The notes below the pieces were generated by a model. That model was not told the DNA's origin. It made no database searches and was given only the letters and a program-made list of their open reading frames with translations. Source: Candidatus Latescibacterota bacterium (GTDB taxonomy: Bacteria; Latescibacterota; UBA2968; UBA8231). From it: DNA of 64,000 nt. Within the stretch, counting starts at the first letter, position 1; each line of letters opens with the position of its first letter. The position numbers and the translations under genes are program-made. Shown piece after piece: positions 23,455 through 50,518 of the stretch. The stretch is taken from NCBI GenBank assembly GCA_965223905.1, contig CBDCXV010000010.1, positions 128,001 to 192,000 of the forward strand, in the 5' to 3' direction.

Positions 23455-23807
23455 GATTTCTTGTCGATCGCTGTGCCGGCCGCCGCCTGGCCGAATGGCT
23501 GCGCGACCAAGGGCATGACGTCGTCGAGTCCCGTGAGCTTGGGGCCGATCCTGGAGATTTGGCGCTGATCAAACGCGCCGCTGACGAAGGCAGAATCCTG
23601 GTGACGATCGATACCGATTTTGGAGAGCTTGTCTACGTAGGGAATGCTCCCCATGCGGGGTTGGTGCGCCTTCCAGATGTGCCGGTGGAGGGGCGCATTT
23701 CCTTGATGGCCGAAGTGCTTGACCGGCATCGGCATGCCTTGGAAATACAAGCCGTTGTCACAATTCGCGGCGAGCGGATCCGCATCTCCCAGCCTCCTCC
23801 GCCATAG
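23451..23807 (+). CDS. DUF5615 PIN-like protein (VapC45-like toxin)
   Basis: GTG start overlapping DUF433 stop; MRFLVDRC..LRDQGHDV..RILVTIDTDFGEL. Confidence 0.88.
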   Translation: MRFLVDRCAGRRLAEWLRDQGHDVVESRELGADPGDLALIKRAADEGRILVTIDTDFGELVYVGNAPHAGLVRLPDVPVEGRISLMAEVLDRHRHALEIQAVVTIRGERIRISQPPPP

Positions 23808-23910
23808 ATGGTTTTCAAATCCCGTATCGATCCGCGTCGAGTGCCATCAACCTGTTAGAACACGGCCACGGTTCAGAACGGCCGCGATCCTTCGCGCATT
23901 GCAGGTACGG

Positions 23911-28652: not shown

Positions 28653-29096
28653 GTGGAGGAAACTCTTGAGTTGGAGGTCAGGCTCGATCCCGAAGAGCCC
28701 AGGCGCGTAGCCGAGCAGTTCGAACGCTTCGGAGCCGAGCATGGGCTGCCGGACAGAACGATTTTCGGATTCCAGCTGGCACTGGACGAGATCCTGACCA
28801 ACGTGATCTCCTACGGATTCGAGGAGTGGGCTCACGATCCGGTCATCACGGTGAGTTTTGACCTCAACGACACCCGGCTCGAGGTCGTCGTCCAGGACAA
28901 CGGCCGGCCCTTCGACCCGCTCCAGGACGCCGACGAGCCCGATTTGACCCTTCCCGCCTCTGGCCGCCCTGTCGGCGGCCTCGGCATCCATCTCACCAAG
29001 GCATTCGTTCACACGCTTTCGTACGAGCGGGTGGACGAGTACAACCGACTGAACCTGGTGCAGCCCACCGAGGCGCACCCGGAGGACAATGCATGA
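28653..29096 (+). CDS. Anti-sigma factor / serine kinase (RsbW-like)
   Basis: LALDEILTNVISYG, QDNGRPFDP, GGLGIHL. Confidence 0.9.
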   Translation: MEETLELEVRLDPEEPRRVAEQFERFGAEHGLPDRTIFGFQLALDEILTNVISYGFEEWAHDPVITVSFDLNDTRLEVVVQDNGRPFDPLQDADEPDLTLPASGRPVGGLGIHLTKAFVHTLSYERVDEYNRLNLVQPTEAHPEDNA

Positions 29097-29428
29097 ACGT
29101 CGAGACCAGCCATACCGGAAGCACCGCAGTCGCGGCCGTTAGCGGCCGCGTTGATTCCGCCAACGCAAAAAGCTTCGAAGAGGAACTGAGCTCCATCATC
29201 GACCAGGGGGCCACCGGCCTCGTGGTCGACTGCGGCGAGCTCAACTACATCAGCAGCGCCGGGCTGCGGGTTTTCCTGATCGCCATCAGGAAGACCAGCG
29301 CCGCCGGGGGAGGCCTGGCCCTGTGCCGCGTTCCCGCACACATCCAGGAGGTGCTGGAGATCAGCGGTTTCTCGCGCCTGACGAAGATCTTCCCCACGGT
29401 GGAGGAAGCCCGGGACAGCTTCGGATAG
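29093..29428 (+). CDS. STAS anti-sigma factor antagonist (RsbV-like)
   Basis: GRVDS..VDCGELNYISSAGLRV..EVLEISGF. Confidence 0.92.
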   Translation: MNVETSHTGSTAVAAVSGRVDSANAKSFEEELSSIIDQGATGLVVDCGELNYISSAGLRVFLIAIRKTSAAGGGLALCRVPAHIQEVLEISGFSRLTKIFPTVEEARDSFG

Positions 29429-29571: not shown

Positions 29572-30975
29572 ATGAACGCACGCCGACACCGATCCTCCAT
29601 TCTCCGCCGCCCGCGGATTCCCGGGGCGGCTGCAGCTTGCGGGCTCTTCGCCGCCGGCATCCTCCTGGCCCCGGGTACCGCGGCGGCCGCGGAGGAAACC
29701 GGCTTCATCCTCAACACCTTCTCGTTCCTCGTCTGGGGAGTCCTGGTGATGTGGATGTGCGCCGGCTTCACCATGCTCGAGGCCGGATCGGTGCGCTCCA
29801 AGAACGCCTCGATGATCTGCCTGAAGAACATCGGGCTGTACGCCATCGCAGGGCTCACTTACTACGTGGTCGGCTACGGTCTGATGTACGTCGATGTCGG
29901 CACCCTAGTCGGTTCGCTGAATCTTTTGCACGGTCCCTCCGCCGACGAAGTCTCCTTCCTGGGCGGTGACAAGGGGGCGATGGCCGCCGTCCTCGCGAAC
30001 AACTACTCGACCATGTCCAACTGGTTCTTCCAGATGGTGTTCGTGGCCACCACCGCCTCCATCGTCTCCGGAACCTTGGCGGAGCGGGTGAAGCTCTGGG
30101 CCTTCTTCGCCTTCACCGCGATCCTGACGGCGATCATCTACCCCGTGGTCGGCGCCTGGACATGGGGAGGCGGCTGGCTTTCCCAGATGGGCTTCCAGGA
30201 CTTCGCCGGCTCCACCATCGTCCACTCGACCGGGGGCTGGGCCGCCTTGGCCGGGGCCATCGTCGTGGGAGCCCGCTGGGGCAAGTTCCGCAAGGACGGC
30301 TCGGTCAAGATCACCCCTCCGTCCAACATTCCGGCGGTCGCTCTCGGCGTCTTCATACTCTGGCTTGGATGGTTCGGCTTCAATGGCGGCTCGCAGCTTG
30401 CCCTCGCCGGCGCCGCCGACGCGGTGGCAATGAGCAACATCCTCGTCAACACCAACCTCGCCGCGGCCGCGGGAGTGCTCACCGCCATTTTGGTTTCGCG
30501 TCCCATCCTCGGGCGCACCGACCTCTTCTCCGCCCTCAACGGCGCCATCGCCGGCCTGGTGGCGATCACCGCGGGACCGGACATCACCGACCCCTGGCTG
30601 GCGATAATCATCGGCGCCGTGGGCGCGATCCTCTGCACCGCCGGGCTGAAACTGCTCGAGCGCATGAGGATCGACGACGTGGTCGGCGCCGTCCCGGCGC
30701 ACCTATTCGCCGGTGTCTGGGGGACGCTGGCGGTCTGCCTTTCGGGGAAGAGCAGTTTCCTCGTGCAGCTTACCGGAGTCCTCGCCGTCGGTGCGTTCGT
30801 CTTCGCCACCTCCATGTTGCTGTGGTTCGTTCTGAGCCGCACACTGGAAGTCCGGGTCTCGCGCGATGTCGAGGAAATCGGCCAGGACGCCGCTGAGCTG
30901 GGAATCGACGCCTACCCCGAGTTCGCCCTCATGGTGGACCCGGACGAGGGGGGAGATTACCGCGATCCGGACTGA
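29572..30975 (+). CDS. amt: Ammonium transporter
   Basis: GFTMLEAG, FFQMVF..SIVSG, DFAGSTIVH, WFGFNGGS, DDVVGAVPAH. Confidence 0.95.
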   Translation: MNARRHRSSILRRPRIPGAAAACGLFAAGILLAPGTAAAAEETGFILNTFSFLVWGVLVMWMCAGFTMLEAGSVRSKNASMICLKNIGLYAIAGLTYYVVGYGLMYVDVGTLVGSLNLLHGPSADEVSFLGGDKGAMAAVLANNYSTMSNWFFQMVFVATTASIVSGTLAERVKLWAFFAFTAILTAIIYPVVGAWTWGGGWLSQMGFQDFAGSTIVHSTGGWAALAGAIVVGARWGKFRKDGSVKITPPSNIPAVALGVFILWLGWFGFNGGSQLALAGAADAVAMSNILVNTNLAAAAGVLTAILVSRPILGRTDLFSALNGAIAGLVAITAGPDITDPWLAIIIGAVGAILCTAGLKLLERMRIDDVVGAVPAHLFAGVWGTLAVCLSGKSSFLVQLTGVLAVGAFVFATSMLLWFVLSRTLEVRVSRDVEEIGQDAAELGIDAYPEFALMVDPDEGGDYRDPD

Positions 30976-36904: not shown

Positions 36905-37751
36905 ATGACGGGACTATCAGAGGGAGAACGGGAAGCGCCATCCACCTCGCCATCCGGAAATGCAGTGGACGGCCTCCGGATGGCCCCCGAGCTCATGGTC
37001 GACCTCGCTCGCAAGGCGGCAGAGCTCGTGGTGGAGCGGATCGAGGGCCTGCCGGAAGAAACCCGCCTGGGACGGTGAGTTCCGGCAGGTGCTCGAAGCC
37101 CGTGGCTGCACGTCGACGCCGCGTACGGAGGCTTCGCCGCGGTGACCGAGGAAGGCGGCAGGCTGTTGCGCGGAATCGAGCGCGCCGATTCGATCGGGCT
37201 GGACGCGCACAAATGGTTCTTTCAACCGTACGAGGCCGGCTGCCTGCTGGTGAAGGACGCCGGCACCCTCGAACAGGCATTCGGCGTTCACCACGACATC
37301 CTCCAGGACACCGTGTGGGGTGCGAACCTCTCGGACCGCGGCCTGCAGCTGAGCCGCTCCTTCCGCGCCCCGAAGCTCTGGATGTCGGTCCAGACCTTCG
37401 GAATGGCGGCGTTCCGGCGGGCGGTTTCCAAGGGGATGGAGCTGGCCGCCCGGGCGGAAGGGTACGTCCGCGAGAGCCGGACCCTGGAGCTGTTGACCCC
37501 GGCGTCGCTGGGAATCGTCTGTTTCCGCAATCAACCCCGAAGGCACCCCCGTCGGCGAAGAATCCCTCGAAGAGGTCAACCGGACCGTGCTCGCCAGGGT
37601 CTTCTGGGATGACCGCGCCTTCATATCGTCGACGCTGCTCCGGGGGAAGTTTTCTCTCAGGATGTGCATCATCAACCACACCACCACCTGGGACGACGTG
37701 CGCGAAACCCTGGAGGCTGCCGAGAGGTTCGGGTCCGAGGAATTATCCTGA
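36905..37751 (+). pseudogene. Group II PLP-dependent decarboxylase, large internal deletion plus frameshifts
   Basis: N-terminal helix joined at about 37100 directly to WLHVDAAYGG..ADSIGLDAHKW..LQLSR..LRMCIINH; frameshifts about 37060 and 37529. Confidence 0.85.
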
Positions 37752-37858
37752 TTCGAGAGAGAGGCGGGACCAGAATAGGCGGAAACGGTCCAGCTAATGC
37801 ATTTTCCAATCATCCAACCATAACCATGACATTGCCCGATTCCATGGAGGAGAAGCCC

Positions 37859-39208
37859 ATGAGACTCGTTTCTTCTTTTCTGCTCACCTGCGCCTTGACC
37901 CTGGGCGGCTGCTCCGACCACGATCCGGTTTCCTCCAACCAGCCGGAAGCGGCGGGCAAGCGGATATCCAGCAGCCTGACCTTGAGCGCCCCTGTCGCCG
38001 GGCTGGCCGAGTCCAGGCCCTCCAGGCCCCGCTTCGAGCCCGGACCGCTCGGCGCCGTCGAAGTCGAAGAGGGAGAGGCGGTACAGATCCGGTCGTTGCT
38101 CGCGCACACCGTAGCGCCATCCCTTGGCGTGCCATCCCGGCAAAGCATCGAGTTGGCCGTGGCGGACTTCGGACCCGTTCACGGCCGCGAGGTCGAGCTC
38201 GGAGAGCCTGTAGACGCCATGTGCTCGCCGGAAGGGGGAAGCGCGGGCGCAGGGCAGATCGTCGCCGACCCGCAGGTGCTCGGCGTCATCGGCACCTCCT
38301 GCTCGGCCGCGGCGGTAGCGGCCTCACGGGTGATCGGGGAAGCGGGGCTGGTGATGATCTCGCCATCCAACACCTCCCCTTCGCTCACTTCCGATCTGGC
38401 CGGCAACGCCAATCCCGACCACCACCCCGGGTATTTCCGCGTTTCCATCAACGATCTCTACCAGGCGCAGGCGGTCGCCGACTTCGCCTACACCGAGCTG
38501 GGCCTGCGGAGCATGGCCGCGGTCGACGACGGAGATCCGTACACGACGGCCCTGGTCAGCGCCTTCAGCGACGCTTTCACCGCACTCGGAGGGACGCTTG
38601 CAGCCACCGCCCGGGTCGAGAAGGGGGAGACGGACATGACCTCTATCCTGGCGGAATTCTCGGAAGCCGGGCCGGACGGCATCTTCTTCCCGCTCTTCGT
38701 AGTGGAAGGCTCCGCATTCGCCGAGCAGGCGCGGGCCTTCGACGGGCTGGAAGGGGTGACGCTCATTTCGGGTGCGGCCCTTCTGGTGTCCGAGTTCCTC
38801 GGCACGCCGCAGTCGGAGGGCATCTACTTCGCGGGGCCGGAGTCGGATCTCGGCTCGAACGTCAACGCGGCGACCGGCAAGAGCGCCGAGGAAGTGCTGG
38901 ACGCATTCGCCGCGGCTCACGGCGGGTCTCCGGGGACTCCCTACTGGGCGCACTCCTACGACGCTGCGACGCTGCTGCTCGGCGCCATCGAGTCCGTTGC
39001 CGTGGCCGAGGTCGGGAAGCTGTACGTCGACCGCGCCGCGCTGCGGGAGGAGATCGCGGCGACGGACGGCTTCCAGGGCCTCGTAGGAACGGTTTCCTGC
39101 GACGATTTCGGAGACTGCGGCACCGGGCGCATCAACATCTACCACCACATGGACGCGAACATCACCGATCCCGCGCAGCTGCCGGTGGTCTACCGGTTCG
39201 CTCCCTGA
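37859..39208 (+). CDS. Branched-chain amino acid ABC-type substrate-binding lipoprotein (no adjacent permeases)
   Basis: Lipobox LGGC; LGVIGTSCS, MISPSNTSP, YFRVSIND, SYDAATLLL. Confidence 0.88.
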   Translation: MRLVSSFLLTCALTLGGCSDHDPVSSNQPEAAGKRISSSLTLSAPVAGLAESRPSRPRFEPGPLGAVEVEEGEAVQIRSLLAHTVAPSLGVPSRQSIELAVADFGPVHGREVELGEPVDAMCSPEGGSAGAGQIVADPQVLGVIGTSCSAAAVAASRVIGEAGLVMISPSNTSPSLTSDLAGNANPDHHPGYFRVSINDLYQAQAVADFAYTELGLRSMAAVDDGDPYTTALVSAFSDAFTALGGTLAATARVEKGETDMTSILAEFSEAGPDGIFFPLFVVEGSAFAEQARAFDGLEGVTLISGAALLVSEFLGTPQSEGIYFAGPESDLGSNVNAATGKSAEEVLDAFAAAHGGSPGTPYWAHSYDAATLLLGAIESVAVAEVGKLYVDRAALREEIAATDGFQGLVGTVSCDDFGDCGTGRINIYHHMDANITDPAQLPVVYRFAP

Positions 39209-39234
39209 GCCTTGTCTCCCGGCTGCTGGGGCAG

Positions 39235-39431
39235 TTCCGCCAGGGACGGAGCTGGGAGGATTCGTCGATGCCGAGGGGCATCGGCCGCAGGACTCCAAAA
39301 GGCCCGGGATGGTGCTTCGTGAGCTGGGCATCCTACCCGATAGGGACCCGGCTGAACGGCATGCGGGTCCGCGTTCTCCCTGGTCCACCCGAAGGGGAGC
39401 TCGTTCAGCGAGCGCCGTGCTGATTCCGCCA
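39235..39431 (+). ncRNA. Candidate structured RNA with possible kissing loops (unidentified)
   Basis: Hairpins 39264-39285, 39344-39370, 39399-39413; loop CTGAA complementary to loop TTCAG; flanked by TTCCGCCA direct repeats. Confidence 0.3.
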
Positions 39432-39678
39432 CTGCGCCTGTAGCGGATAAATGGACCTTGTCGAGAACCAAGGATCTACTCGACCGCTCACCCAACAGGA
39501 CATGCCCGTGGGTGGGAAGACAGCCTACCGCGTTCGAAAGACTAGGAAAAGAAACGGGATCAGGCAGGCGCCTTCAGCTCGAGGAATTACGCATCAACGC
39601 AACGCATTCCTCCGGTGTTCCAGTTGTAGAAGCTGCCTCTTCAGGCAGGAAATCCTATTCTACGCTCTGAACCACTAA

Positions 39679-39834
39679 CAGCCCGTTGATAAAGTTGCGC
39701 TGCAGGCGAGACCGAGTCATTGCGGTCGAAGACAAGGCGCGCGACCGAAGTGTAAAACGGCTCGGGTAATTCCCATACGGTTCGGAAGTGGTGGTCAAAT
39801 CCCTGTCCCCCGGGGAGTCATCTTTCAACCGGTG
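39679..39834. mobile_element. Possible degenerate MITE / IS-end scar
   Basis: Imperfect terminal inverted repeats CAGCCCGTTGATAAAG ... TCTTTCAACCGGTG; no ORF. Confidence 0.25.
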
Positions 39835-39885
39835 CGTTTCGACCCGCGCAGAAATTTCCAGCCCTCCAAGAGAGATCGCCGGAAA

Positions 39886-40635
39886 TCAACAAAGCCGAGG
39901 ATCGGAATCCGGGGCCACTTCATGAGCGATGGCGGCAGCGAAATCCTCGTTGCCCAGATCCTCCAGCCGCCATCTGACTTCCGGCATCCGGGGAAACCGG
40001 AATATGGTCGTCGTCATGCCGCGGCGCATGGCCAAGGGGATCTCGAATTCGGACATGCCCGAAGAAAGGCCTGTGCCAAGCGCCTTGAGCAGTGCTTCCT
40101 TCATTGTCCAGAGATTGTAGAACAGGTGGAGCTTGTGGCTTCCACGCGCCAATGCGAGCTCGGCCTTTTCGCCCGGGCCGAGCACGGTCCTTATCAGTCC
40201 GTCGAGGTCGCCACGGGGGACCCGTTCCTCGACATCCACGCCCAGCCGCCCTTCCGGCGCCACCGCGATCAATCCATGTCCGCCCCCGTGACTTACGTTG
40301 AAGCTTATGGTCGCCGGCGCCCCATCCAACAGGGCAAACGGCTTTCCATAACTGGATACAGCGAATGCAAGTTGTTCGTTTCGGCAGCCGAGTCGCTTGC
40401 AGAGAATTGCGCGGAGCGCCGCACGGCACAAGGCGAATCGACGACGGGGACCGGCATGCAGGTAGCGTTGCCAGCGTGACTGTTCCTTTTCGTCAAGGTA
40501 CTCAAGGGCGTCCGCCTCCCGGGAAGCATGTGGCGAAAGATCGACGTATGTGACGGCGGCGTTGCCGATCTTTCTGAAGGGACGCCACCAGCACTCGGCA
40601 ACGGAAGCTGGTATTGTTTGTCGGGGGAGCTGCAC
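39886..40635 (-). CDS. Sfp-type 4'-phosphopantetheinyl transferase (SupC/D-like)
   Basis: GKP, FNVSH, GVDVE, WTMKEALLKALGTG motifs. Confidence 0.9.
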   Translation of the reverse strand: MQLPRQTIPASVAECWWRPFRKIGNAAVTYVDLSPHASREADALEYLDEKEQSRWQRYLHAGPRRRFALCRAALRAILCKRLGCRNEQLAFAVSSYGKPFALLDGAPATISFNVSHGGGHGLIAVAPEGRLGVDVEERVPRGDLDGLIRTVLGPGEKAELALARGSHKLHLFYNLWTMKEALLKALGTGLSSGMSEFEIPLAMRRGMTTTIFRFPRMPEVRWRLEDLGNEDFAAAIAHEVAPDSDPRLC

Positions 40636-40697
40636 CAGTCCTTCACAAAGCCGCAGATCTTCGCTGGAGCAGCGGACACCCCGTATCCAGGGGGCGT

Positions 40698-40897
40698 TCA
40701 GCCAGCGTGAGTATCGAGGTGCTCGATGAATTCCCGTACGCTGTTATCATCCGCACAATCTTCGGGAGTAAACGTATCGTTGGATTCCTGAGCGACCAGT
40801 TTCGCGAACGCAACGAGTTTCACGGAGGATACGCCGGCATCGATCAGGCTGAAATCCATATCCTCCCGCAGCCCTACGGGAATAATGCCAACGTGGG
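40698..40897 (-). pseudogene. Acyl carrier protein fragment (SupB-like), N-terminus lost
   Basis: Frame not in ORF track: DMDFSLIDAGVSSVKLVAFAKLVAQESNDTFTPEDCADDNSVREFIEHLDTHAG stop; DAGVSS pantetheine-attachment motif. Confidence 0.7.
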
Positions 40898-40930
40898 CTC
40901 AGGATGGACAGCACCATCCATTTCCCCGCA

Positions 40931-41164
40931 CCCGACCCCGGAGCCCGGAACACCCTCGGTCACCCCGTTCTTCCCGGCTTCGAGCAGCCGCCAGAAAGCC
41001 GAGAGGTCCTCTGCCTTTGGGAATCGGCACGCCATGCCCACAATCGCTATCGGCTGTGCGGACCGGTTCCCCTTCTGTTGCCCGACCCCGGTTTCAGGAA
41101 CGGGTTCTCCGGAAGGATCGAAGGACCCGTCCAGTCTCAACATGCTACCGGTTTCAGAATTCAT
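40931..41164 (-). pseudogene. 5' fragment of a type I PKS ketosynthase (SupA-like)
   Basis: QPIAIVGMACRFPKAEDLSAFWRLLEAGKNGVTEGVPGSGVG, then homology stops abruptly. Confidence 0.85.
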
Positions 41165-41514
41165 CTCGGCAACCCTTTCTTCAAAATCAAAACACCGGTC
41201 GTTGCCCGGCCCCTCCATTTCTCCGACTCCAAAACAATACCACGTGTATATGAAACCCACCAAGCGACACCGCCACCTCGTTGCGTGAGGATTCCGTCGC
41301 GCCCTTGCCGGGGATGGCGAAATTCACTTGCGCGAAGACAAACCGCGCTACAATCAACGGGCTGCAATCGATTTGGTTATCTTTTTCCGTCTTCGTCCGC
41401 ACCTTCACCCGTTTCTTTGGAAACAGGGACCGCGCCCACAAGAGCGAACGACTGCCAATACCTGGAAGGCAGGCCTTTCGCCGGCACGTAATGATGCGGT
41501 GACCTTTGGCGCCG

Positions 41515-41554
41515 GTCCGAACTTCCATCCTCTGGTCCGAACTTCCATCCTCTG
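41515..41554 (+). repeat. 20-bp tandem duplication
   Basis: GTCCGAACTTCCATCCTCTG x2. Confidence 0.9.
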
Positions 41555-41671
41555 ATCGACTGATGCGACCCTTGCCGCCGCGCAACGGCTGCCCTCTCGC
41601 GGGCCCTTCCGGCAACACCCCCTACCACCCCGTCCGGTGACTTCCGGACCATACAAACCTGGAGCGCCTCG

Positions 41672-42829
41672 ATGGCCAAGATCCTAGTCGTAGACGACGA
41701 GCCGGACCTGGAGCTGCTGCTGCGGCAGAGATTCCGGCGCCGGACCCGGTCCGGAGAGCTCAGTCTCGTTTTCGCCCAGAACGGCGTCGAGGCCTTGCAG
41801 CAACTCGAGGAACACGACGACGTCGACCTGGTGCTGTCGGACATCAACATGCCGGAAATGGACGGGCTCACCCTCCTGCAGCAGCTCGGCAGTCTCGACT
41901 ACGACCTGCGGGCGGTGATGGTCACGGCGTACGGGGACATGAAGAACATCCGCACCGCCATGAACCGGGGGGCCTTCGATTTCGTGACCAAGCCGATCGA
42001 CTTCGACGACCTCGAAGCGACGATCGCCAAGACCCTCGAGCACCTCGGGGTAATGCGGGAGGCGCTGCGATCGCGGGACGAGCTGGTGGCCCTGCGGCAG
42101 GAGCTCGGGGTGGCGGCGCAGATGCAGGAGTCCATTCTCCCCACGGACTTCCCCGTGAACCCCCGCTACGAGATACACGCCTCGATGACCCCGGCTCGCG
42201 AGGTCGGCGGCGACTTCTACGACTTCTTCCGGATCGAGGGCGAGCGCATGGGGATCGTGGTGGCGGACGTGTCGGGGAAGGGAGTGCCGGCCGCCCTCTT
42301 CATGATGGTGAGCCGGACCCTCATGAAGGGGACCGCCATCGGCGAGAGCAACCCGGCGAAGTGCCTCAACGAGGTCAACGAGCTGCTGACCGAGTCGAAC
42401 GAGGAGTCGATGTTCGTCACCGTGTTCTACACTACCCTCGACCCGGTCACGGGGCGCGTCGAGTTCGCCAACGCCGGGCACAACCTGCCGTACGTGGTCA
42501 AGCAGTCCGGCGAGGTGCGGCAGATCTCCTGCGACCCGGGGCTGGTCCTGGGGGTGCTGCCCTCCTTCGAGTTCCCGGAGGGTAACATCGAGCTGGACCC
42601 GGGGGACGTGCTGTTCTTCTACACCGACGGCGTCAACGAGGCGATGGACGAGAACGGCGTCGAGTTCGGCGACGAAAGGCTGACCCAGGTCCTGGCGCAG
42701 GCCGCGGGTGCCAGCGCCGCCGAGTTCAGCAGCCGGGTGGTGCAGGCGGTGCAGGATCACGCCGGGGAAGCCCCCCAGTCCGACGACATAACCTGCATGG
42801 CTGTGCGCTACATCGGGGATCCTGCGTAG
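41672..42829 (+). CDS. Response regulator receiver + PP2C/SpoIIE phosphatase (RsbU/RsbP-like)
   Basis: ILVVDD..LSDINMPEMDG..TAYG..KP; EVGGDFYD, ADVSGKG, MFVT, YTDGVNEA, QSDDIT. Confidence 0.93.
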   Translation: MAKILVVDDEPDLELLLRQRFRRRTRSGELSLVFAQNGVEALQQLEEHDDVDLVLSDINMPEMDGLTLLQQLGSLDYDLRAVMVTAYGDMKNIRTAMNRGAFDFVTKPIDFDDLEATIAKTLEHLGVMREALRSRDELVALRQELGVAAQMQESILPTDFPVNPRYEIHASMTPAREVGGDFYDFFRIEGERMGIVVADVSGKGVPAALFMMVSRTLMKGTAIGESNPAKCLNEVNELLTESNEESMFVTVFYTTLDPVTGRVEFANAGHNLPYVVKQSGEVRQISCDPGLVLGVLPSFEFPEGNIELDPGDVLFFYTDGVNEAMDENGVEFGDERLTQVLAQAAGASAAEFSSRVVQAVQDHAGEAPQSDDITCMAVRYIGDPA

Positions 42830-44014
42830 ATGGGTCGCTTCGCCCTCCTCGCCGCGGCAGCGGCGGGACTGGCGCCTGTCGCCGCGTACGCCGCCCCCCC
42901 GGCCGTCAGCGACGGGGTGTTCCCCGACTCGATCCTCTTCGGACAGTCCGCGGCCCTGAGCGGCCCGGCCGGGGAGCTGGGGAGAAACATGAACCTCGGG
43001 GTGCGCGCCGCCTTCGAGGAGGCCAACCGCTCCGGCGGCATCCACGGCCGCCAGCTCCGGCTCCTCGTGCGGGACGACGGGTACGAGCCCGAGGCCGCGG
43101 TCGCCAACACCAGGGAGCTGATCGCGCTCGGCGTCTTCGGCCTCATCGGCGCCGTCGGCACCCCCACCTCCAACGCCGCCGAACCGATTGCCAGCGGCGC
43201 CTCGGTCCCCTACATCGGCCCCTTCACCGGCGCCGACCTGCTCAGGGGGGACGACCAGCGGTACGTAGTGAACGTCCGCGCCTCGTACTACCAGGAGACC
43301 GAGGAGATGGTGGAGCGGCTGACCGCGGACCTGGGATTCCGGCGCATCGCCATCCTCTACCAGGACGACAGCTACGGAACCGCCGGCCTGACAGGGGTGC
43401 GCCGTGCTCTCGACCGGCGCGGCATGAAGCTGGTCGGCGAAGTCACCTACATGCGCAACACCATCGCCGTGAAGCGGGCCCTTCTCGGCCTCCTGGACAG
43501 CGACCCGGAAGCGGTCATCATCATCGGCGCCTACCGGCCGGCAGCCCACTTCATCAAGTGGGCCCGGAAGATCGGCATGGAAGCGGTCTTCGTGAACATA
43601 TCCTTCGTCGGCAGCAACGCCCTCCTGAAGGAGCTGGGCGGGGCCGGCGACGGGGTGGTGGTCACCCAAGTCGTGCCCTTCCCGCGCGACACCGCCATTC
43701 CGATAGTGGCCCGGTATCACGCCGCCCTGAAAGCGGCCGACGGCGCCGCGCAGCCGGGATTCGTCTCCCTTGAGGGGTACCTGGCGGGGCGCCTGGCGGT
43801 CGATGCCCTGCGCGCCTCCACCGCCCCTGGCGACGGTGAAGGGGCCCTGCCGACCCGTGAGGCTTTCCTCCGCACCCTCGAGGAATCCGGCCCCATCGAT
43901 CTGGGCGGCTTCGAGGTCGAGTACGGTCCCGGGGACAACCAGGGGTCCGACCAGGTGTTCCTGACCACGATCCGCGGGGGCGGTTTCGTCCCGGTGACGC
44001 GGCTGTTGCGATGA
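42830..44014 (+). CDS. Periplasmic binding protein type 1 (ABC ligand-binding-like)
   Basis: Signal peptide; GQSAALSGPA, DDGYEP, GAVGTPT, NVRASY, SLEGY. Confidence 0.88.
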   Translation: MGRFALLAAAAAGLAPVAAYAAPPAVSDGVFPDSILFGQSAALSGPAGELGRNMNLGVRAAFEEANRSGGIHGRQLRLLVRDDGYEPEAAVANTRELIALGVFGLIGAVGTPTSNAAEPIASGASVPYIGPFTGADLLRGDDQRYVVNVRASYYQETEEMVERLTADLGFRRIAILYQDDSYGTAGLTGVRRALDRRGMKLVGEVTYMRNTIAVKRALLGLLDSDPEAVIIIGAYRPAAHFIKWARKIGMEAVFVNISFVGSNALLKELGGAGDGVVVTQVVPFPRDTAIPIVARYHAALKAADGAAQPGFVSLEGYLAGRLAVDALRASTAPGDGEGALPTREAFLRTLEESGPIDLGGFEVEYGPGDNQGSDQVFLTTIRGGGFVPVTRLLR

Positions 44015-46245
44015 ACATCTCCGAGCAACGCATCCAATCCACCTTCGAAAGCGTCCTGGCGCGGCTCCCCGGCCCCCTCGGCGAACGCCTCCGGAAAGCG
44101 ACCGGGGGACGGTTCGGCATCGGCAGCAAGATCGCCGTGGTCCTGGGCGGCGGCGTCACCCTGACCATCGGCGCCGTCGTTCTCGCGCTGGGGCTGATGA
44201 GAATAGTCAGCACCCGCCAGAGCGAGGTCACCGAAGGGTACATGCCGGCTCTGGTCGCCGCCTTCGAGGTCGCCCGGAGCAGCTCCGAGTTGGTGCGGGC
44301 TTCCCCCCGGCTCCTCGCCGCCGACGATCCCGACGACCTCGGGTTGGTGATGTGGGACGTGGTGCGGGAGGAGGAGACCTTGCGGAAATGGCTTTCCGAA
44401 GTAAGGCGCGCCGAATCGAAGGGAGGCGCCGAGGGAGACATCGGAAGCGCGGTCGTGCCGCTGGCCGACAGCCTGGTGGAGAGCATCAGCCAGATCCAGG
44501 AGTCGGTCGGGCGCAGGATGCAGTACCGGGCCCTGCTCCGGAAGCTCGAAGGGCAGGTCGAGAGCCTCGGCCTCGAACTGCAGCTATTGCTCGAGGAGCT
44601 GGTCGACGATCAGCATTTCTTCATGCACACCGGGCTCCGCGGTCTCGACGATGCCCCGGCCTCCCCGGACCGGAGGACGTCGAGGGCCGAGCTCGATCAC
44701 TACGCCGGCCTCCTCGACTTCCAGGCTTCGCAGAACGTCACCACCACCCTCATCCAGCAGGCGATGACGGAGAACGACCCGGAGCTGCTGCGGGCGAACC
44801 GGGAACGGGTGGAAACGGCCATGAGCGACGTGCGCCGGGCCCTGGGCGGGATCAGGCCGGCGATCAGGTCCCGGCTGCAGCCGCAGGTGGAGAAGCTGAC
44901 CGGCTTCTACGCCGCTCCGGACGGGGCCTTCGAGACCCGCACCCGCGAGCTCGAGGAGATCCGCCGCTCCGAAGATCTCCTGGCCCGCAACCAGCAGACC
45001 ACCGCCGACCTCGTGGCCATGGTGGAAGGACTGGTGAAGGAGGCCGAGGTCTCCACCCAGAACGCCGCCAATCGCTCCCGCAACCTGGTGCGCCTCGGGT
45101 TCTGGTTTCTGCTCGGGGTCACCCTCCTCACCCTCGTCGCCGCCTACTTCGTCTGGATGTTCTTCGGCAAGCGCCTGCTGGCCCGGTTGGGCAGGCTCTT
45201 CGACGCCACCCAACGGATGTCGAAGGGGGATCTCGAAGTGCAGGTGGAGATCGAAGGGAACGACGAGGTGACCGACATGGCCGGGGCCTTGGAGGTCTTC
45301 CGGCAGCACGCCGTCGAGGTGCAGCGGCTCAACCTCGTCGAAAAGCTCGCCGCGGAGGTCCAGGCCAAGAACGCCGCGCTCGAGACCACCAACTCCGAGC
45401 TGGAGACCACCCTGGAAGACCTCAAGCGCACTCAGCAGCAGGTCATCAGCCAGGAAAAGCTCGCCTCCCTGGGGGCCCTCACCGCCGGCATCGCCCACGA
45501 GATCAGGAACCCCCTGAACTTCGTCAACAACTTCGCCGGCCTTTCGTCCGACCTGATCGACGAGCTGCGGGAAGAGCTGAAGGGAGAGGGGGAGGGCGGC
45601 ATGGACCAAGAGCTGATCGACGAGATCCTCGACGACCTCGGCGGCAACGCGGGCAAGGTGAAGGAGCACGGGGAGCGGGCCAACCGCATCGTCGAGGGCA
45701 TGCTGGCCCACTCCCGCAACGAGGCGGGACAGGTGGAATCAGTGGACATCAACCTGCTGGTCGACGAATACGCCAAGCTCGCCTACCACGGACTAAGGGG
45801 CACGGATTCGACGTTCAACGTCAACCTGGTCCAGGAGTACGACGAGGGCGCCGGGCGGGTCGAGGCGAGCACCCGGGACCTGAGCCGGGTCTTCCTCAAC
45901 GTGGTGACGAACGCCTGCCACGCCACTGCCGCCCGCGCCAGGGAGTCCGACGGCTCCTACAAGCCCAAGGTGTGGCTCAGGACCGAGGGCAGCGAGGACG
46001 GCGTTCGCGTTTCCATCCGCGACAACGGCACCGGGATTCCCGCCGAGATCGTCGACAGGATCTTCGACCCGTTCTTCACCACCAAGTCCGGCACCCAGGG
46101 GACCGGGCTCGGACTTTCGATCTCCCACGAGATCGTCCGCGAGCACGGGGGGGAGTTCCAGGTGGAGACCGAAGAGGGGGAATTCACCGAATTCAGGATA
46201 GTCCTGCCGAGGAAGGGCGTCCTTTCCGCCGCTCCTGCTTCCTGA
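44011..46245 (+). CDS. Sensor histidine kinase with large helical periplasmic domain and HAMP
   Basis: TM, long helical TorS-like sensor, TM, HAMP (NDEV), LTAGIAHEIRNPLNFVNN, DNGTG, FDPFFTTK, GTGLGL. Confidence 0.92.
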   Translation: MNISEQRIQSTFESVLARLPGPLGERLRKATGGRFGIGSKIAVVLGGGVTLTIGAVVLALGLMRIVSTRQSEVTEGYMPALVAAFEVARSSSELVRASPRLLAADDPDDLGLVMWDVVREEETLRKWLSEVRRAESKGGAEGDIGSAVVPLADSLVESISQIQESVGRRMQYRALLRKLEGQVESLGLELQLLLEELVDDQHFFMHTGLRGLDDAPASPDRRTSRAELDHYAGLLDFQASQNVTTTLIQQAMTENDPELLRANRERVETAMSDVRRALGGIRPAIRSRLQPQVEKLTGFYAAPDGAFETRTRELEEIRRSEDLLARNQQTTADLVAMVEGLVKEAEVSTQNAANRSRNLVRLGFWFLLGVTLLTLVAAYFVWMFFGKRLLARLGRLFDATQRMSKGDLEVQVEIEGNDEVTDMAGALEVFRQHAVEVQRLNLVEKLAAEVQAKNAALETTNSELETTLEDLKRTQQQVISQEKLASLGALTAGIAHEIRNPLNFVNNFAGLSSDLIDELREELKGEGEGGMDQELIDEILDDLGGNAGKVKEHGERANRIVEGMLAHSRNEAGQVESVDINLLVDEYAKLAYHGLRGTDSTFNVNLVQEYDEGAGRVEASTRDLSRVFLNVVTNACHATAARARESDGSYKPKVWLRTEGSEDGVRVSIRDNGTGIPAEIVDRIFDPFFTTKSGTQGTGLGLSISHEIVREHGGEFQVETEEGEFTEFRIVLPRKGVLSAAPAS

Positions 46246-46399
46246 TGTTTGCCGCTGCCGAGGGTGGTCGGGGCTTTGCGGACAAACCCCCTCCACGGGG
46301 CGCCGCCCCGGATTCACGGCCACCCGTTCTACCACGATGACCGGAACCTTGCTGTCCCCGATCCCACCTTGTTGACCGCAACCCGAACCTTCCCGGCAA

Positions 46400-46414
46400 T
46401 GGCGATCATCTTGC
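46400..46414 (+). promoter_or_regulatory. Possible sigma54 -24/-12 promoter
   Basis: TGGC-GATCATC-TTGC (GG-N10-GC spacing), about 70 nt upstream of ATG 46484. Confidence 0.35.
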
Positions 46415-46483
46415 GGCAAGGAGCCGCAAGCCATCTCTGCAGAATCCCGGAAAAACCAGACCTGGTACAACGAGGACAGCCGG

Positions 46484-47257
46484 ATGGAAACAGCATGCGC
46501 AGCGGTTTCGGCGGCCGCACTGCTGGCCGCCTGGACTGCGACCCCCGCCCGAGCCGAGTTCCACCTGCAGTACGGCAAGCTGCTGAACCCATTCTCGGCA
46601 GCGGAGCAACAGACCCTTGTCTTCACCGTGCAGCGGGCCGCGGGATGGAAGTACGGCGACAGCTTCTTCTTCATCGACTACCTCGACGACGGCGGAGAGG
46701 ACGGCTTCAACGACAGGGAGTTCTACGCCGAGTGGTATCCGACCCTGAGCTTCGGCAAGCTCGCCGGCAGGGCGTTCCGCCTCGGCCCGATCGCTGATTT
46801 CTCCCTCGTTGCCGGGTTCAACGCCACCGGCGACGGCAAAGTCGTGCAGTACCTGCCCGGTCTGAGAGCCTCGTGGAACCTGCCGGGATTCCTGTTCCTG
46901 AATACGGACCTCACCGCCTATATCGACGGCAGCACCGGCATCGACGGCGGGGGGCCTCCCGAAACCGGCAGCAGCTTCATGTTCGACGTCAGCTGGGTCT
47001 TTCCCTTCGAGGCGGGCAGCCAGTCGTTTGCCATCGCCGGCCATGCGGAGTACCTCGGCGGCAGCACCAACGAGCTCGGCGAGGAGGTCAACGGGTCGAT
47101 TCTCGCCCAGCCGCAGTTCACCTGGGATCTGGGCAAGGCCGTATTCGCAGCGCCCCATCGGTTCCTGGCCGGCATCGAGTACCAGTACTGGCGCAACAAG
47201 CTCGGAACGGACCTCGACGAGAGCACGGCGCAGCTGCTGGTGGTGTGGCGCCCCTGA
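46484..47257 (+). CDS. Tsx-like nucleoside-specific outer membrane channel
   Basis: Signal peptide; GWKYGDSFFFIDY, YAEWYPTLS, QPQFTWDLG, GIEYQYWRNKLG. Confidence 0.8.
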   Translation: METACAAVSAAALLAAWTATPARAEFHLQYGKLLNPFSAAEQQTLVFTVQRAAGWKYGDSFFFIDYLDDGGEDGFNDREFYAEWYPTLSFGKLAGRAFRLGPIADFSLVAGFNATGDGKVVQYLPGLRASWNLPGFLFLNTDLTAYIDGSTGIDGGGPPETGSSFMFDVSWVFPFEAGSQSFAIAGHAEYLGGSTNELGEEVNGSILAQPQFTWDLGKAVFAAPHRFLAGIEYQYWRNKLGTDLDESTAQLLVVWRP

Positions 47258-47374
47258 AGGGCTTGCAATTCCGGGATCGGGGTTCGCAGGGCTTTCAGCA
47301 TATCTTCGCCGGGATCGTTCGCTGAATTTAATTTTGTCAATTTTGGTTTTTTTCTTACAAGCTACTGGGAGACA

Positions 47375-49144
47375 ATGGATTTGGATACAGCAAAAGCGAA
47401 TGAAAACATCCGCTTCGAGCCCGACGAGCTCCCTCCCCACTCGGTCGCGGCCGGGGTCGGATTTCAGGCCGCGGTCGTCGTCCTGGCGCCGGTGGTGCTC
47501 AGTGCCGTCATAATTGCCCGGGCAGCCAACCAGCCGGCGAGCTACCTGACCTGGGTCGCCTTTGCGGCGCTGATGGTCAGCGGCGTGAGCACGGTGCTGC
47601 AAGCGGTCCGGATCGGGCGTATCGGGGCGGGGCACGTGCTCATCATGGGGACCTCCGGAGCCTTCATCGCGGTCTGCATCACGGCGCTAGTGAAGGGCGG
47701 ACCCCCCTTGATGGCGAGCCTTATCGTCGTTTCGTCGCTGTTTCAGTTTCTCCTGGCGGCGCGGCTGTCGCTGGTGCGCCGGATCATCACGCCGGTCGTC
47801 TCCGGAACGGTGATCATGCTGATCGCAGTCACGGTCATGCCGGTCGTGTTCGACCTGCTGGGGGACGTTCCGGACGACACGCCTGCGGCTGCGGCACCGG
47901 CCGCGGCCGCAGCCACCCTCGCCGCCCTCCTGGTCCTGGCGCTGCGCGCGCCCGTGGCCTGGAGGCTATGGGCCCCGCTCATCGCCATCGTTGTCGGCTG
48001 CGCCGTCTCCGCCCCCTTCGGGCTGTACGACGTTCAGCCGGTGCTCGAAGCTGCCTGGATCGGTTTTCCCGACTACGCCTGGCCGGGACTGGACCTGTCG
48101 CTCAGCGCGGAGTTCTGGGCACTGCTGCCCGCGTTCGTGGTCGTCACCATGGTAGGGGCGATCGAGACCATCGGCGACGGCGTCGCCATTCAACGGGTCT
48201 CGCGGCGGCGCCCGCGGGCAACCGATTTTCGCCTCGTCCAGGGCGCTCTCAACGCCGACGGGGTGGGCAATCTGCTTTCCGGGCTCGTCGGCACGCCCCC
48301 CAATACGACCTACTCCACCAGCATATCCCTCGCCGAGCTCACCGGGGTCGCCGCCCGCCGCGTCGGCGTGTATATCGGCGTCCTCTTCGTGTTGCTGGCG
48401 CTGTCGCCCAAGGTGACGGCCCTCATCATCGCCATTCCCAACCCGGTTGGCGCCGCCTACGTAACCCTGCTGATAGGCATCCTCTTCGTGCAGGGAATGA
48501 AGATCGTCGTCGGGGACGGCCTCGATCACCGCAAGGCCGCGGTGGTGGGTCTCGCCTTCTGGATCGGCGTCGGCTTCCAGAACCGGGTGATCTTCGCCGA
48601 CCTGCTGGGCGGGACCTTGGGCACCTTGCTCGGCAACGGCATGACCGCCGGGGGGATCGCGGCGATCGCCCTGACCGCCTTCCTGGAGCTGACGGCGCCC
48701 CGGAGCCGGCGTCTCAAGGTCGAGCTGGCCGCTTCGGCGCTGCCGGAAATCGACGCCTTCCTGCGCGCCTTTGCCTCAAAAATCGGCTGGAAAGATCCGT
48801 CGGAAGGGCGGCTGCGCTCCGCGGGAGAGGAGACCCTGGCGGTCCTGCTGCAGCAGGCCGAAGAGGAAGACGCGGGCCCCGAGGGGCGGAGCCTGATCGT
48901 CACCGCCCGCCTGTCGGAGAAGAGTGTGGAGCTGGATTTCCTCGCCGCCTCGAGCGCCGAGAACCTCGAGGACCGGCTCGCCTACCTCAGCGAGCAGCCC
49001 GAGCTGGTCGACGAGCACGAGATCTCCTACCGCCTGTTGCGGCATTACGCCTCTTCGGTGCGGCACCAGAAGTACCACGACGTCGACATCGTCTCGGTGC
49101 TGGTCGAAGGCTCGCCCGAGTCCCGCCCGGAGCAGGGCGGATGA
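47375..49144 (+). CDS. NCS2 (xanthine/uracil) permease with extra C-terminal RsbW-like domain
   Basis: GVSTVLQ, MGTSGAF, TPVVSGTVIMLI, IETIGD, ADGVGNLLSG..PNTTYS; soluble tail of about 140 aa after about 48700. Confidence 0.85.
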   Translation: MDLDTAKANENIRFEPDELPPHSVAAGVGFQAAVVVLAPVVLSAVIIARAANQPASYLTWVAFAALMVSGVSTVLQAVRIGRIGAGHVLIMGTSGAFIAVCITALVKGGPPLMASLIVVSSLFQFLLAARLSLVRRIITPVVSGTVIMLIAVTVMPVVFDLLGDVPDDTPAAAAPAAAAATLAALLVLALRAPVAWRLWAPLIAIVVGCAVSAPFGLYDVQPVLEAAWIGFPDYAWPGLDLSLSAEFWALLPAFVVVTMVGAIETIGDGVAIQRVSRRRPRATDFRLVQGALNADGVGNLLSGLVGTPPNTTYSTSISLAELTGVAARRVGVYIGVLFVLLALSPKVTALIIAIPNPVGAAYVTLLIGILFVQGMKIVVGDGLDHRKAAVVGLAFWIGVGFQNRVIFADLLGGTLGTLLGNGMTAGGIAAIALTAFLELTAPRSRRLKVELAASALPEIDAFLRAFASKIGWKDPSEGRLRSAGEETLAVLLQQAEEEDAGPEGRSLIVTARLSEKSVELDFLAASSAENLEDRLAYLSEQPELVDEHEISYRLLRHYASSVRHQKYHDVDIVSVLVEGSPESRPEQGG

Positions 49145-49399
49145 ATGAGGGCAGTGACCGCAGGTCCCGGATCTGTCGGTGCGGAGTGCCGCGATAGCCT
49201 GAGTGCCTGCCCTGTGCCGGCATGTGCCCCGGCCACCCCCCCGGCCTTCTGTTGCAATCCGTTGCAAGCCGGGAACCGGCCGGCATGGGAAAGGCGGGCT
49301 GAGGCGCAGTCACGGCCCCGGCAACAAGTCGGCTGGCTCGAATCCCGGGTCCCGCGGCTGGACCCGGCCCTGAGGCTGGCGCAGGTGAAGCCGGAACCG

Positions 49400-50518
49400 C
49401 TACGAGCGGGACAGCCTGTGGGCGCGGTACGGGTTGCTGCAGGGCGGACCGTCGGCGACCTCCAGAGTGCCGGCGGAGACATCCATGACCACCGAGGCCA
49501 GGGTTTCCAGGACGAGCTCGTCCGGCTGGTCTTCCCGGTGCCGGCAGATCGATTCCGGCCGGTTCTCGTGATCGCGGAGAATGGCCTTCAGACGCTCGCT
49601 GCCCGCCTCCCCTTCCCCGATCAGCTCTCCGGCCCGCCGGGCGCGGTCGCAGAACCCGGGATACTGAACGGCCAGGCGGTCCTCGAGGCCGCGCTCCCGG
49701 GGAGGGCCGTCTTCACTGGCATCTGCAAAGACATTGCAATGCGACGCCCGCCCGCCCGGGGACGCGGCGACCACGGCGACGTCCGCGGGGCTCACCTCGA
49801 GCGAGGCGACCTTCCCCTCCCCCGAGCCCGGGGCACCCGGTTGCGCCATGGTGAAGTTGACCGAGGCTACCCGTTCGGCCGGCTCCAGAGTGCGGCGCGC
49901 CTCGTCGATGCTCGAGCAGTTGAGCGCGGCGCGCGCCAGCACCCAGACCGGCACCGCGGCCTCGAAGCGGTCGAGCTGCGATCCCATGGCGTTGGCGCAC
50001 AGGGCGAGGCCTTCGGAGTTGATCCCCTTGTGGCCGACGAACCCCGCCTCGACGTGGGTGAGGATGTCGGGGCGGTCCTCCTGCCGGACCTCGAGCAGAA
50101 TGCTGACCTCCCCGACCGGCACCGCCCAGTCCCAGTTCTGCCCGACCAGGGTGTGGCCGCTTTCGCTGGCCCGGGCGATTCCGAGGGAGGTGCATTCACC
50201 GCTTCCTGCCGGCGCTCCGGCGAAGAGGGTCGACAGCATGATCTCGTAGCGGCCGTTGACGATCAACACGTCGTCGACCGCGAGCCCGGAGCCGGCGGCG
50301 ATCCCCTCGATCTCGGTCAGAATCTCCGCGTCGAAATCCCCAATCTTCCCGGCGAAACCGGAGATGATCTCGATCAGCTCCCCCCGGGTGCGGCCGCTCC
50401 CCTTCTCCCACATGTCGACGTAGAACTCGACCCCCTTGCGGATGAGGGGGCCGGCCTGCTCGCCGTACTGGCGGCCGCGTTCGAACGCGCCGCCGCTGAT
50501 GGTCACTTTGCGGGGCAT
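49400..50518 (-). CDS. Peptidase C45 family (Ntn hydrolase / acyltransferase)
   Basis: RGRQYG, EIEGIAAG, N.RYE, ECTS nucleophile site, GQNWDW, GINSEGL. Confidence 0.88.
   Translation of the reverse strand: MPRKVTISGGAFERGRQYGEQAGPLIRKGVEFYVDMWEKGSGRTRGELIEIISGFAGKIGDFDAEILTEIEGIAAGSGLAVDDVLIVNGRYEIMLSTLFAGAPAGSGECTSLGIARASESGHTLVGQNWDWAVPVGEVSILLEVRQEDRPDILTHVEAGFVGHKGINSEGLALCANAMGSQLDRFEAAVPVWVLARAALNCSSIDEARRTLEPAERVASVNFTMAQPGAPGSGEGKVASLEVSPADVAVVAASPGGRASHCNVFADASEDGPPRERGLEDRLAVQYPGFCDRARRAGELIGEGEAGSERLKAILRDHENRPESICRHREDQPDELVLETLASVVMDVSAGTLEVADGPPCSNPYRAHRLSRS

Follow-up and report, generated by a model that had tools for sequence, protein, structure and literature searches.

Anti-sigma kinases of the RsbW/SpoIIAB/UsfX type are stand-alone proteins. 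RsbW-family proteins act as dimers and bind sigma factors, and their usual partners are STAS proteins and PP2C phosphatases. Transporters of the NCS2/NAT/SLC23 family, with UraA, UapA, XanQ and SVCT1 as characterised members, have no soluble tail of this kind in any bacterial representative in the PDB. In SulP/SLC26 transporters, a 7+7 inverted repeat is followed by a C-terminal cytoplasmic domain derived from partner switching, the STAS domain; the portions of a STAS review drawn on here discuss only this SulP/SLC26-STAS arrangement among transporter cases (PMC8256260), and full-text literature searches returned no description of an NCS2-RsbW-like fusion. Here we analyse such a fusion, encoded at positions 47375 to 49144 (forward strand) of a 64,000-nucleotide stretch from a Candidatus Latescibacterota bacterium (GenBank assembly GCA_965223905.1, contig CBDCXV010000010.1, positions 128,001 to 192,000; hereafter the window). 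As judged from structure models, its product is very probably a degenerate RsbW/SpoIIAB-fold domain carried by an NCS2-fold transporter. It resembles SulP/SLC26 in combining a 7+7 inverted repeat with a C-terminal, partner-switching-derived cytoplasmic domain, whereas that domain is antagonist-like (STAS) in SulP/SLC26 and corresponds to the opposite, kinase-like partner here; the link between the two is one of analogy. What is new is the architecture, in which a familiar fold and a familiar signalling logic come together, possibly with a new type of output.

The permease and its C-terminal domain

An initial annotation, made by eye from the sequence, had placed the reading frame at exactly the coordinates obtained here and had noted a soluble tail at about 48700-49110. 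This tail is a structured domain in the full-length AlphaFold2 (AF2) model, which was built from 32 sequences with a mean predicted local distance difference test (pLDDT) score of 84 and a predicted template modelling (pTM) score of 0.79: the last membrane helix ends at residue 440, and a compact alpha/beta domain occupies residues 445-578. The gene and its two parts are as follows.

47375..49144, + strand: whole gene, predicted NCS2-fold permease with a C-terminal RsbW-like putative pseudokinase domain, 589 aa (open reading frame (ORF), AF2, Foldseek)
47375..48694, + strand: membrane domain, aa 1-440, NCS2/NAT family, divergent subfamily (PF00860, PDB sequence matches)
48707..49108, + strand: soluble tail, aa 445-578, predicted degenerate Bergerat-fold domain of the RsbW/SpoIIAB type without N-box Asn, G1 DxG and G2 GxG (AF2, VIA, Foldseek, hhalign)

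Modelled on its own from an alignment of 42 sequences, the tail reached a pLDDT of 86 and a pTM of 0.80, and its elements follow the order beta-alpha-alpha-beta-beta-alpha-alpha-beta-beta, the order of secondary structure also found in RsbW, SpoIIAB and UsfX. The model was compared structurally with all PDB representatives (VIA Z) and by Foldseek. The structural comparison yielded the following matches (Z, root-mean-square deviation (rmsd), aligned residues).

UsfX (8ih8): Z 15.1, rmsd 2.4 Å, 115 residues
RsbW (6m36): Z 14.3, rmsd 2.0 Å, 103 residues
RsbW domain of Rv1364c (3ke6): Z 14.3, rmsd 3.5 Å, 120 residues
SpoIIAB (1l0o): Z 14.3, rmsd 2.8 Å, 122 residues
SiaB (6kko): Z 11.4, rmsd 3.0 Å, 121 residues
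LvrC (9qih): Z 10.7, rmsd 3.6 Å, 123 residues

The ATP-binding (CA) domains of histidine kinases ranked below these proteins, with Z of at most 7.0, and the top ranks in Foldseek were taken by the same proteins (E 1.5e-7 to 7.4e-6, probability 1.00). The RsbW/SpoIIAB-type Bergerat fold, which had been proposed from short matching segments, is thus borne out by the structural comparison (Z 14.3-15.1 for the four closest proteins), and the AF2 model of the tail gave no indication of a non-Bergerat fold.

At the level of sequence, the tail (48695-49141) matched no Pfam family at E ≤ 10, gave no BLASTP alignment at E ≤ 100 with the intact RsbW protein encoded at position 28653 of the window, and returned only chance-level matches among PDB sequences by phmmer and profile hmmsearch (for example, GAL4 at E 0.02 and RpoD at 0.6). 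With neither a Pfam nor a BLASTP match, the resemblance to RsbW is invisible to ordinary sequence search. While RsbW-type kinases are recognised by the Pfam family HATPase_c_2 (PF13581), the window tail falls short of its gathering score, with nothing reported at E ≤ 10. HATPase_c_2 was the only Pfam family to recur among the relatives of the tail, appearing weakly in 8 of 42 with a best E of 0.0066; one relative, P0201, scored 26.2 bits against a cut-off of 27.4. An hhalign comparison of the 42 tails with 32 RsbW homologues was collinear over 129 columns (E 4.5e-4, probability 33%), and it recovered the register that had been drawn by eye against the RsbW at 28653 (LKVEL/LEVRL, FLRAFASKIG/FERFGAEHG, AGEETLAVL/ALDEILTNV and ISYRLLRHY/LGIHLTKAF). 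A search of the ESM Atlas gave unnamed clusters as the best matches, one of which, at 0.92, carries HATPase_c_2 on 15% of its members; we take this as a lead only.

The alignment also bears on the catalytic residues. Across the window RsbW and its family (32 homologues), no variation was seen at E46, N50, D82 and G108-G111, and at least 90% keep G84; hhalign pairs E46 with E46 of the tail, N50 with V50, D82 with A84, G84 with S86 and G111 with S111. When 273 tail sequences were aligned to a hidden Markov model (HMM) of the tail, the columns facing the ATP-binding motifs had the following composition.

Tail column 50, facing RsbW N50 (N-box Asn, coordinates Mg-ATP): I 97, S 86, T 29, V 27, gap 14, C 9
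Tail column 84, facing RsbW D82 (G1 Asp): A 204, S 37, V 11, T 9, G 7, I 2
Tail column 111, facing RsbW G111 (G2 Gly): S 256

Asn, Asp or, at column 111, Gly were not among the six commonest residues at these columns in the 273 tails. The absence of the N-box Asn, DxG and GxG, which the initial annotation had noted for the window tail (V50, A84, S86 and S111), therefore extends to the family, in which the N-box Asn, the G1 Asp and Gly and the G2 Gly of RsbW/SpoIIAB are replaced throughout. Other positions are close to invariant, namely the retained N-box Glu E46 (255 of 256 non-gap rows), N90 (268 of 271), S111 (256), R113 (259), H124 (259) and D131 (249). In the alignment, E46, N90, S111 and R113 fall on the former nucleotide pocket and lid, at the N-box Glu, in the lid and where the G2 helix begins. 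As the ATP motifs are replaced throughout the family while other residues are nearly fixed, the ATP-binding residues must have been lost in the ancestor of the family, with strong purifying selection acting on something else. Judged by these residues, the tail would be a pseudokinase that can no longer bind Mg-ATP.

The membrane domain matches Xan_ur_permease (PF00860) over residues 28-400 (E 1.2e-48, 166.2 bits against a cut-off of 27), and its best sequence matches in the PDB are UapA (E 5.8e-15) and UraA (1.1e-13). The best PDB matches of the full-length model in Foldseek were SVCT1 (TMt 0.70), UapA (5i6c, 0.78) and UraA (8oo1, 0.85), followed by the SLC26 transporters SLC26Dg, BicA and prestin, and the 7+7 transmembrane fold of UraA/UapA is present in the model. 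The Pfam family and the fold are thus common to the permease and UraA, UapA, XanQ and SVCT1, and the membrane part models as a genuine NCS2/NAT-fold transporter, but a divergent one. UraA, which is 429 aa long and aligns to permease residues 65-424, has no room for a comparable tail, as had been stated beforehand.

The initial annotation had further assumed purines or pyrimidines as substrates, which the substrate motif does not support. The NAT signature in the tenth transmembrane helix reads Q/E/P-N-x-G-x4-T-R/K/G. In an HMMER alignment, the 'QNNG' of UapA, which we take to be this signature, faces 'TSIS' in the permease, and across the signature region UapA '...FAQNNGVIALTR' pairs with permease '...YSTSISLAELTG'. 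The Q/E-N and G positions are therefore T-S and S, and the signature is not present as such, while its T position is retained, as is the acidic residue of permease 'AIETIGD', which aligns with UapA 'ACECIGD'. All NCBIfam cut-offs for nucleobase permeases were missed (pbuX 215.5 against 414; ncs2 191.7 against 291.8; uracil permease 74.6 against 477; RutG 45.6 against 758.65). Owing to TSIS at the QNNG positions and the missed cut-offs, we reject the assignment of xanthine or uracil as the substrate, which may differ from that of UapA and is possibly nucleobase-like or another nitrogen-rich compound. Where public databases name the fusion proteins, they use no other terms than 'hypothetical protein' and 'xanthine permease' (XanP). 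In view of the different substrate motif, annotation as xanthine/uracil permeases should be avoided, whether or not the tail docks a STAS protein.

Although without a Pfam family, the tail defines at least 2103 protein clusters at 90% identity (E ≤ 1e-3) and 528 at 50% identity (exhaustive HMMER scan), a large family that lacks annotation. All 120 full-length tail proteins among the matches listed carry PF00860, mostly with lengths of 575-589 aa. The fusion is spread over Latescibacterota, Chloroflexota/Dehalococcoidia, Gemmatimonadota, Acidobacteriota, Binatia, Acidimicrobiia and Gammaproteobacteria, with at most five paralogues per genome. Within Latescibacterota, the tail occurs in 71 of 168 genomes (31/75 in f1, 18/22 in f3, 20/31 in f4 and 1/3 in f2; here and below, L, G, g and f denote loci, genomes, genera and families of the compared set), again with up to five copies per genome and nearly all in frames of about 575-600 aa.

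No other architecture was convincing among 18 proteins of odd length, which were NCS2 fragments or tails joined to apparently frameshifted sequence; a DctM fragment ahead of the tail in one of them is of doubtful reality. The tail is also found on 369 short proteins (≤ 322 aa), some of them on Mb-scale contigs. We do not take these as proof of stand-alone forms, since several long-read assemblies show split permease matches. Open frames of about 900 aa suggestive of a STAS-NCS2-tail triple fusion were likewise discarded: in L091 the STAS gene is a separate one, with several stops ahead of the permease, and in L093 the 934-aa ORF runs out of frame across the gene of the upstream binding protein. 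The genome of the window itself contains a second, partial tail (G000:C1:373382-373669; L002 1375..1797), a 140-aa ORF without a permease in front that shares 53% identity with residues 43-139 of the tail. The SulP-STAS gene on which it converges has an apparent frameshift, as its membrane part and its STAS part are not in the same frame.

Partner-switching genes near the permease

A run of genes on one strand, with small gaps, ends with the permease, which is preceded by a Tsx-like channel, a histidine kinase (HK), a periplasmic binding protein (PBP) and a receiver-domain PP2C phosphatase (REC-PP2C). An RsbW-STAS-Amt group lies 18 kb upstream.

28653..29096, + strand: RsbW-type Ser kinase with intact motifs (HATPase_c_2, E 7.2e-21)
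29093..29428, + strand: single-domain STAS protein, RsbV-like, with a conserved Ser-Ser-x-Gly loop (STAS, E 7.2e-21)
29572..30975, + strand: ammonium transporter (Amt), directly downstream of RsbW-STAS (Pfam, E 1.5e-97)
41672..42829, + strand: receiver-domain SpoIIE/PP2C phosphatase, RsbU-like, first gene of the same-strand run (SpoIIE, E 4.5e-55; Response_reg, E 1.3e-26)
42830..44014, + strand: periplasmic binding protein (Peripla_BP_6), probable co-sensor of the kinase (Pfam, E 3.8e-60)
44011..46245, + strand: sensor histidine kinase, HAMP-HisKA-HATPase_c (Pfam)
46484..47257, + strand: outer-membrane protein of 257 aa, distant Tsx-family channel (Pfam matches of orthologues)

The start of the histidine kinase gene, which is syntenic in L041, L043, L044 and L111, overlaps the 3' end of the binding-protein gene by 4 bases. 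Because of this position and of a TorS-type sensor domain in paralogous kinases of L046 and L050, the binding protein is probably a co-sensor of the kinase. In the STAS protein, S54, S55 and G57 are invariant in 23 homologues. The 7.9-Mb genome encodes one small HATPase_c_2 protein (the RsbW), two stand-alone STAS proteins and two SpoIIE matches, of which the REC-PP2C at 41672-42829 is by far the stronger. Given this scarcity, the genome's main partner-switching kit shares a 20-kb block with the permease and its pseudo-RsbW domain. The usual partners of RsbW-type kinases, STAS and PP2C, are hence present in the neighbourhood. Unlike in the RsbW/SpoIIAB setting, a sigma-factor gene was found neither in the window block nor in the annotated clusters examined, which speaks against the sigma factor that had been suggested as an alternative partner of the tail.

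The assignment of the adjacent outer-membrane protein as Tsx-like, likewise made beforehand, stands as a distant family relationship: Channel_Tsx is the only Pfam family found in 9 of 14 orthologues, above cut-off in 3, and the window copy itself has no Channel_Tsx match. The gene is kept directly upstream of the orthologous permease in relatives. In G167 (L044 11877-12174 / L099 3877-4174) it is broken into three short out-of-frame pieces and is either a pseudogene or the product of assembly frameshifts (long-read). A scan for promoters and terminators over 41000-49700 gave nothing informative.

Tail-bearing permeases cluster with a complete partner-switching kit in this phylum. Among the matches listed (150 of 164 and 150 of 153 in the two match tables), a stand-alone STAS gene lies within 12 kb of a tail-bearing permease in 26 of the 71 tail-bearing genomes and 6 of 10 genera; we estimate the chance expectation at about 1-2% per genome (each gene being present in about 2 copies, genome size about 5.6 Mb), with the reservation that related genomes are not independent. 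The association of homologues with STAS, RsbW and REC-PP2C genes that the initial annotation had anticipated is thus observed in Latescibacterota. A STAS protein is present in 70 of the 71 tail-bearing genomes as compared to 21 of the 97 without tail (genera, 10/10 and 12/39).

The arrangement varies. In G167, RsbW-STAS-Amt-PBP-RECPP2C-PBP-HK-Tsx-NCS2tail follow one another on one strand within about 13 kb. In G106, G107 and G102, SulP-STAS, GPP34, STAS, REC-PP2C and RsbW genes converge on the permease, while a second run, STAS-RsbW-PBP-HK-Amt, diverges from the Tsx gene, so that two STAS/RsbW modules flank the permease in G106 and G107. Short tail and RsbW fragments on both sides of the intact permease of G102 (L046 6421-6546, 11729-11866 and 11868-12086) suggest a past duplication or rearrangement. 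RsbW-STAS-Amt lies 8-11 kb from a second permease paralogue in g1 and g18, and this gene order recurs in L093, L094, L095, L099 and L158. Five genomes of g31 have STAS-RECPP2C-RsbW-PBP about 5 kb from the permease, and in 12 of 15 genomes of g24 a divergent STAS gene, a 94-aa ORF and a permease paralogue stand in a row. The product of this ORF (L092 8384-8665; also L091, L098, L100 and L101) is acidic, belongs to no Pfam family and is 76-94% identical among the five loci.

Possible roles of the tail

It is quite possible, if somewhat short of probable, that the tail retains the protein-binding role of RsbW and docks an unphosphorylated STAS protein. In such a scheme, the periplasmic binding protein and the histidine kinase would control the REC-PP2C phosphatase, and the balance between this phosphatase and the intact RsbW kinase would determine how far STAS is phosphorylated. 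In its unphosphorylated form, STAS would then dock on the dead kinase domain of the transporter and alter uptake; as this domain could not phosphorylate STAS, it would also be unable to release it. The reverse direction, in which the transport state would sequester STAS and the permease would act as a transceptor, is equally compatible. That the output of partner switching would here be transporters rather than a sigma factor, with STAS phosphorylation gating uptake through a kinase-dead RsbW domain, is a bolder proposal, which we consider rather unlikely even with the transceptor version included.

The concept has parallels in AmtB-GlnK and in inducer exclusion by EIIA-Glc, where a small modified signalling protein docks on the cytoplasmic face of a transporter. 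In these systems, covalent modification of the signalling protein reports the nutrient status. The proteins belong to unrelated families, and docking in the present case would take place on a domain fused to the transporter and dedicated to this purpose; as a further parallel to AmtB-GlnK, an Amt gene lies in the same cluster as the permease. If the tail docks STAS, partner switching would be tied directly, at the post-translational level, to nutrient uptake. The tail would also form a complement to the long-known STAS domain of SulP/SLC26, with two sister 7+7 families each having taken one half of a partner-switching pair, and would give a testable answer to the question what partner-switching modules without sigma factors control in uncultured phyla.

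The complex prediction suggested in the initial annotation, combining the tail (42-row alignment) with the STAS protein of the window (23-row alignment), scored 0.41 (runs 0.41, 0.42 and 0.41) as compared to 0.16 for the best control, with a partner pLDDT of at least 89 and at least 94% of contacts in agreement between the runs; we rate this as weak support and weigh it neither for nor against docking. In the calibration of the score, the mark was reached by 116 of 157 solved complexes and by 2 of 215 mismatched pairs, and scores up to 0.60 comprise 18 of the passing solved complexes and both passing mismatches, counts that are only rough guides for predictions with own alignments. As RsbW-RsbV complexes have already been solved, the pass may reflect likeness to them.

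Several observations weigh against STAS docking. A pattern scan with one genome per species returned 500 or more further loci. Of the 80 that were retained, 64 are from other phyla, foremost Chloroflexota/Dehalococcoidia, then Acidobacteriota, Binatia, Acidimicrobiia, Gammaproteobacteria and Ca. Multivorans. These outside loci were checked by tblastn, by Pfam on 113 neighbouring ORFs of 15 loci, and with STAS and RsbW HMMs in six frames. In 63 of the 64, no STAS, RsbW or PP2C was detected within 10 kb on either side, the lone exception being L138 (Dehalococcoidia) with HK-PBP-RsbW-RECPP2C within 10 kb of the permease, and despite the missing neighbours the tail is equally well conserved. Stand-alone STAS proteins do occur in 5 of 5 Chloroflexota/Acidimicrobiales fusion genomes, but also in 10 of 14 control genomes; as proteins of this kind are so common, their presence discriminates nothing. 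Within Latescibacterota, no STAS adjacency was seen in g12, g21 and g25, the linkage counts include related and hence non-independent genomes, the clustering could stem from joint transcriptional control of genes for nutrient scavenging or from synteny kept by descent, and the co-occurrence could follow genome size or lifestyle. In addition, the sequence homology between tail and RsbW is weak, as seen in the hhalign probability and in the lack of a Pfam match for the window tail.

The equal conservation of the tail in phyla without nearby partner-switching genes would be expected if it were an intrinsic structural or gating module without external partner, which dimerises under the membrane domain and stabilises or allosterically gates it, as the STAS domain does in SulP/SLC26. 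Homodimers are formed by RsbW and SpoIIAB and are also the working form of NCS2 transporters. The strict position of the tail, always C-terminal to NCS2 and without convincing exception among the odd-length proteins, fits this explanation, and so do the conserved tail positions in the last beta-hairpin (124, 126 and 131), which coincide with conserved RsbW positions and may mark the fold or a dimer contact. According to the portions of the STAS review drawn on here, bacterial SLC26 proteins depend on their STAS domain for stability and function (PMC8256260). The near-invariant polar residues at the former ATP pocket and lid (E46, N90, S111 and R113) and the repeated, differently arranged clustering with STAS, RsbW and PP2C genes would be left unexplained, and we regard a purely intrinsic module as unlikely.

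These same residues, aligned with the N-box Glu, with the lid and with the beginning of the G2 helix, would make sense if the former nucleotide pocket bound a small molecule (for instance a nucleobase, nucleotide or second messenger) and the tail thereby served as a cytoplasmic feedback sensor of the transporter. Such a sensor would work in every phylum without a neighbouring partner gene, but it leaves the gene clustering unexplained and no ligand is predicted; we consider it very unlikely. Pairing of the tail with intact RsbW as a membrane tether of the kinase, for which the convergent RsbW genes ending about 50-100 bases from the permease 3' end in G106 and G107 could be cited, or sequestration of a sigma factor in the manner of SpoIIAB, is highly improbable, as most loci have no RsbW nearby and no annotated cluster contains a sigma-factor gene.

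Other genes and sequences at the loci

The commonest recurring neighbour in the loci of other phyla is a gene for a 95-aa DUF1330 protein, which lies directly downstream of the permease in 19 loci of several phyla (e.g. L053 8547-8831, L121 10501-10785, L167 10488-10772 and L189 10531-10815). It is found next to tail-bearing permeases in Latescibacterota, Chloroflexota, Gammaproteobacteria and Acidimicrobiales, sometimes together with a GHMP-kinase-like gene, and its product could be an alternative partner of the tail. In 14 loci (L045, L049, L050, L051, L118-L120 and others), a GPP34 (Golgi phosphoprotein 3-like) gene of bacterial type is conserved next to the 3' end of the permease gene, and a SulP-STAS transporter is often encoded beyond it. 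In several loci SulP-STAS genes lie a few kb from the permease, and the tail might even dock the STAS domain of such a neighbouring SulP transporter.

The window contains traces of apparent gene loss and decay between the RsbW-STAS-Amt group and the run that ends in the permease. Downstream of a binding-protein gene (37664-39208), a region of about 2.4 kb (39209-41671) has no convincing ORF and a lower G+C of 0.56-0.61. In G164 (L093) a second tail-bearing permease paralogue lies behind the orthologous gene for the binding protein. The window region keeps only a 31-aa trace of it (E 0.81); the paralogue seems to have been lost here. Between Amt and REC-PP2C, the segment 36254-37612 encodes two short fragments, one of 96 aa (FlgD_ig) and one of 156 aa from the C-terminus of a pyridoxal-dependent decarboxylase, both of which look decayed. 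A concentrative nucleoside transporter (Nucleos_tra2_N, Gate, Nucleos_tra2_C) is encoded at 23719-25146, 3.5 kb upstream of RsbW-STAS-Amt.

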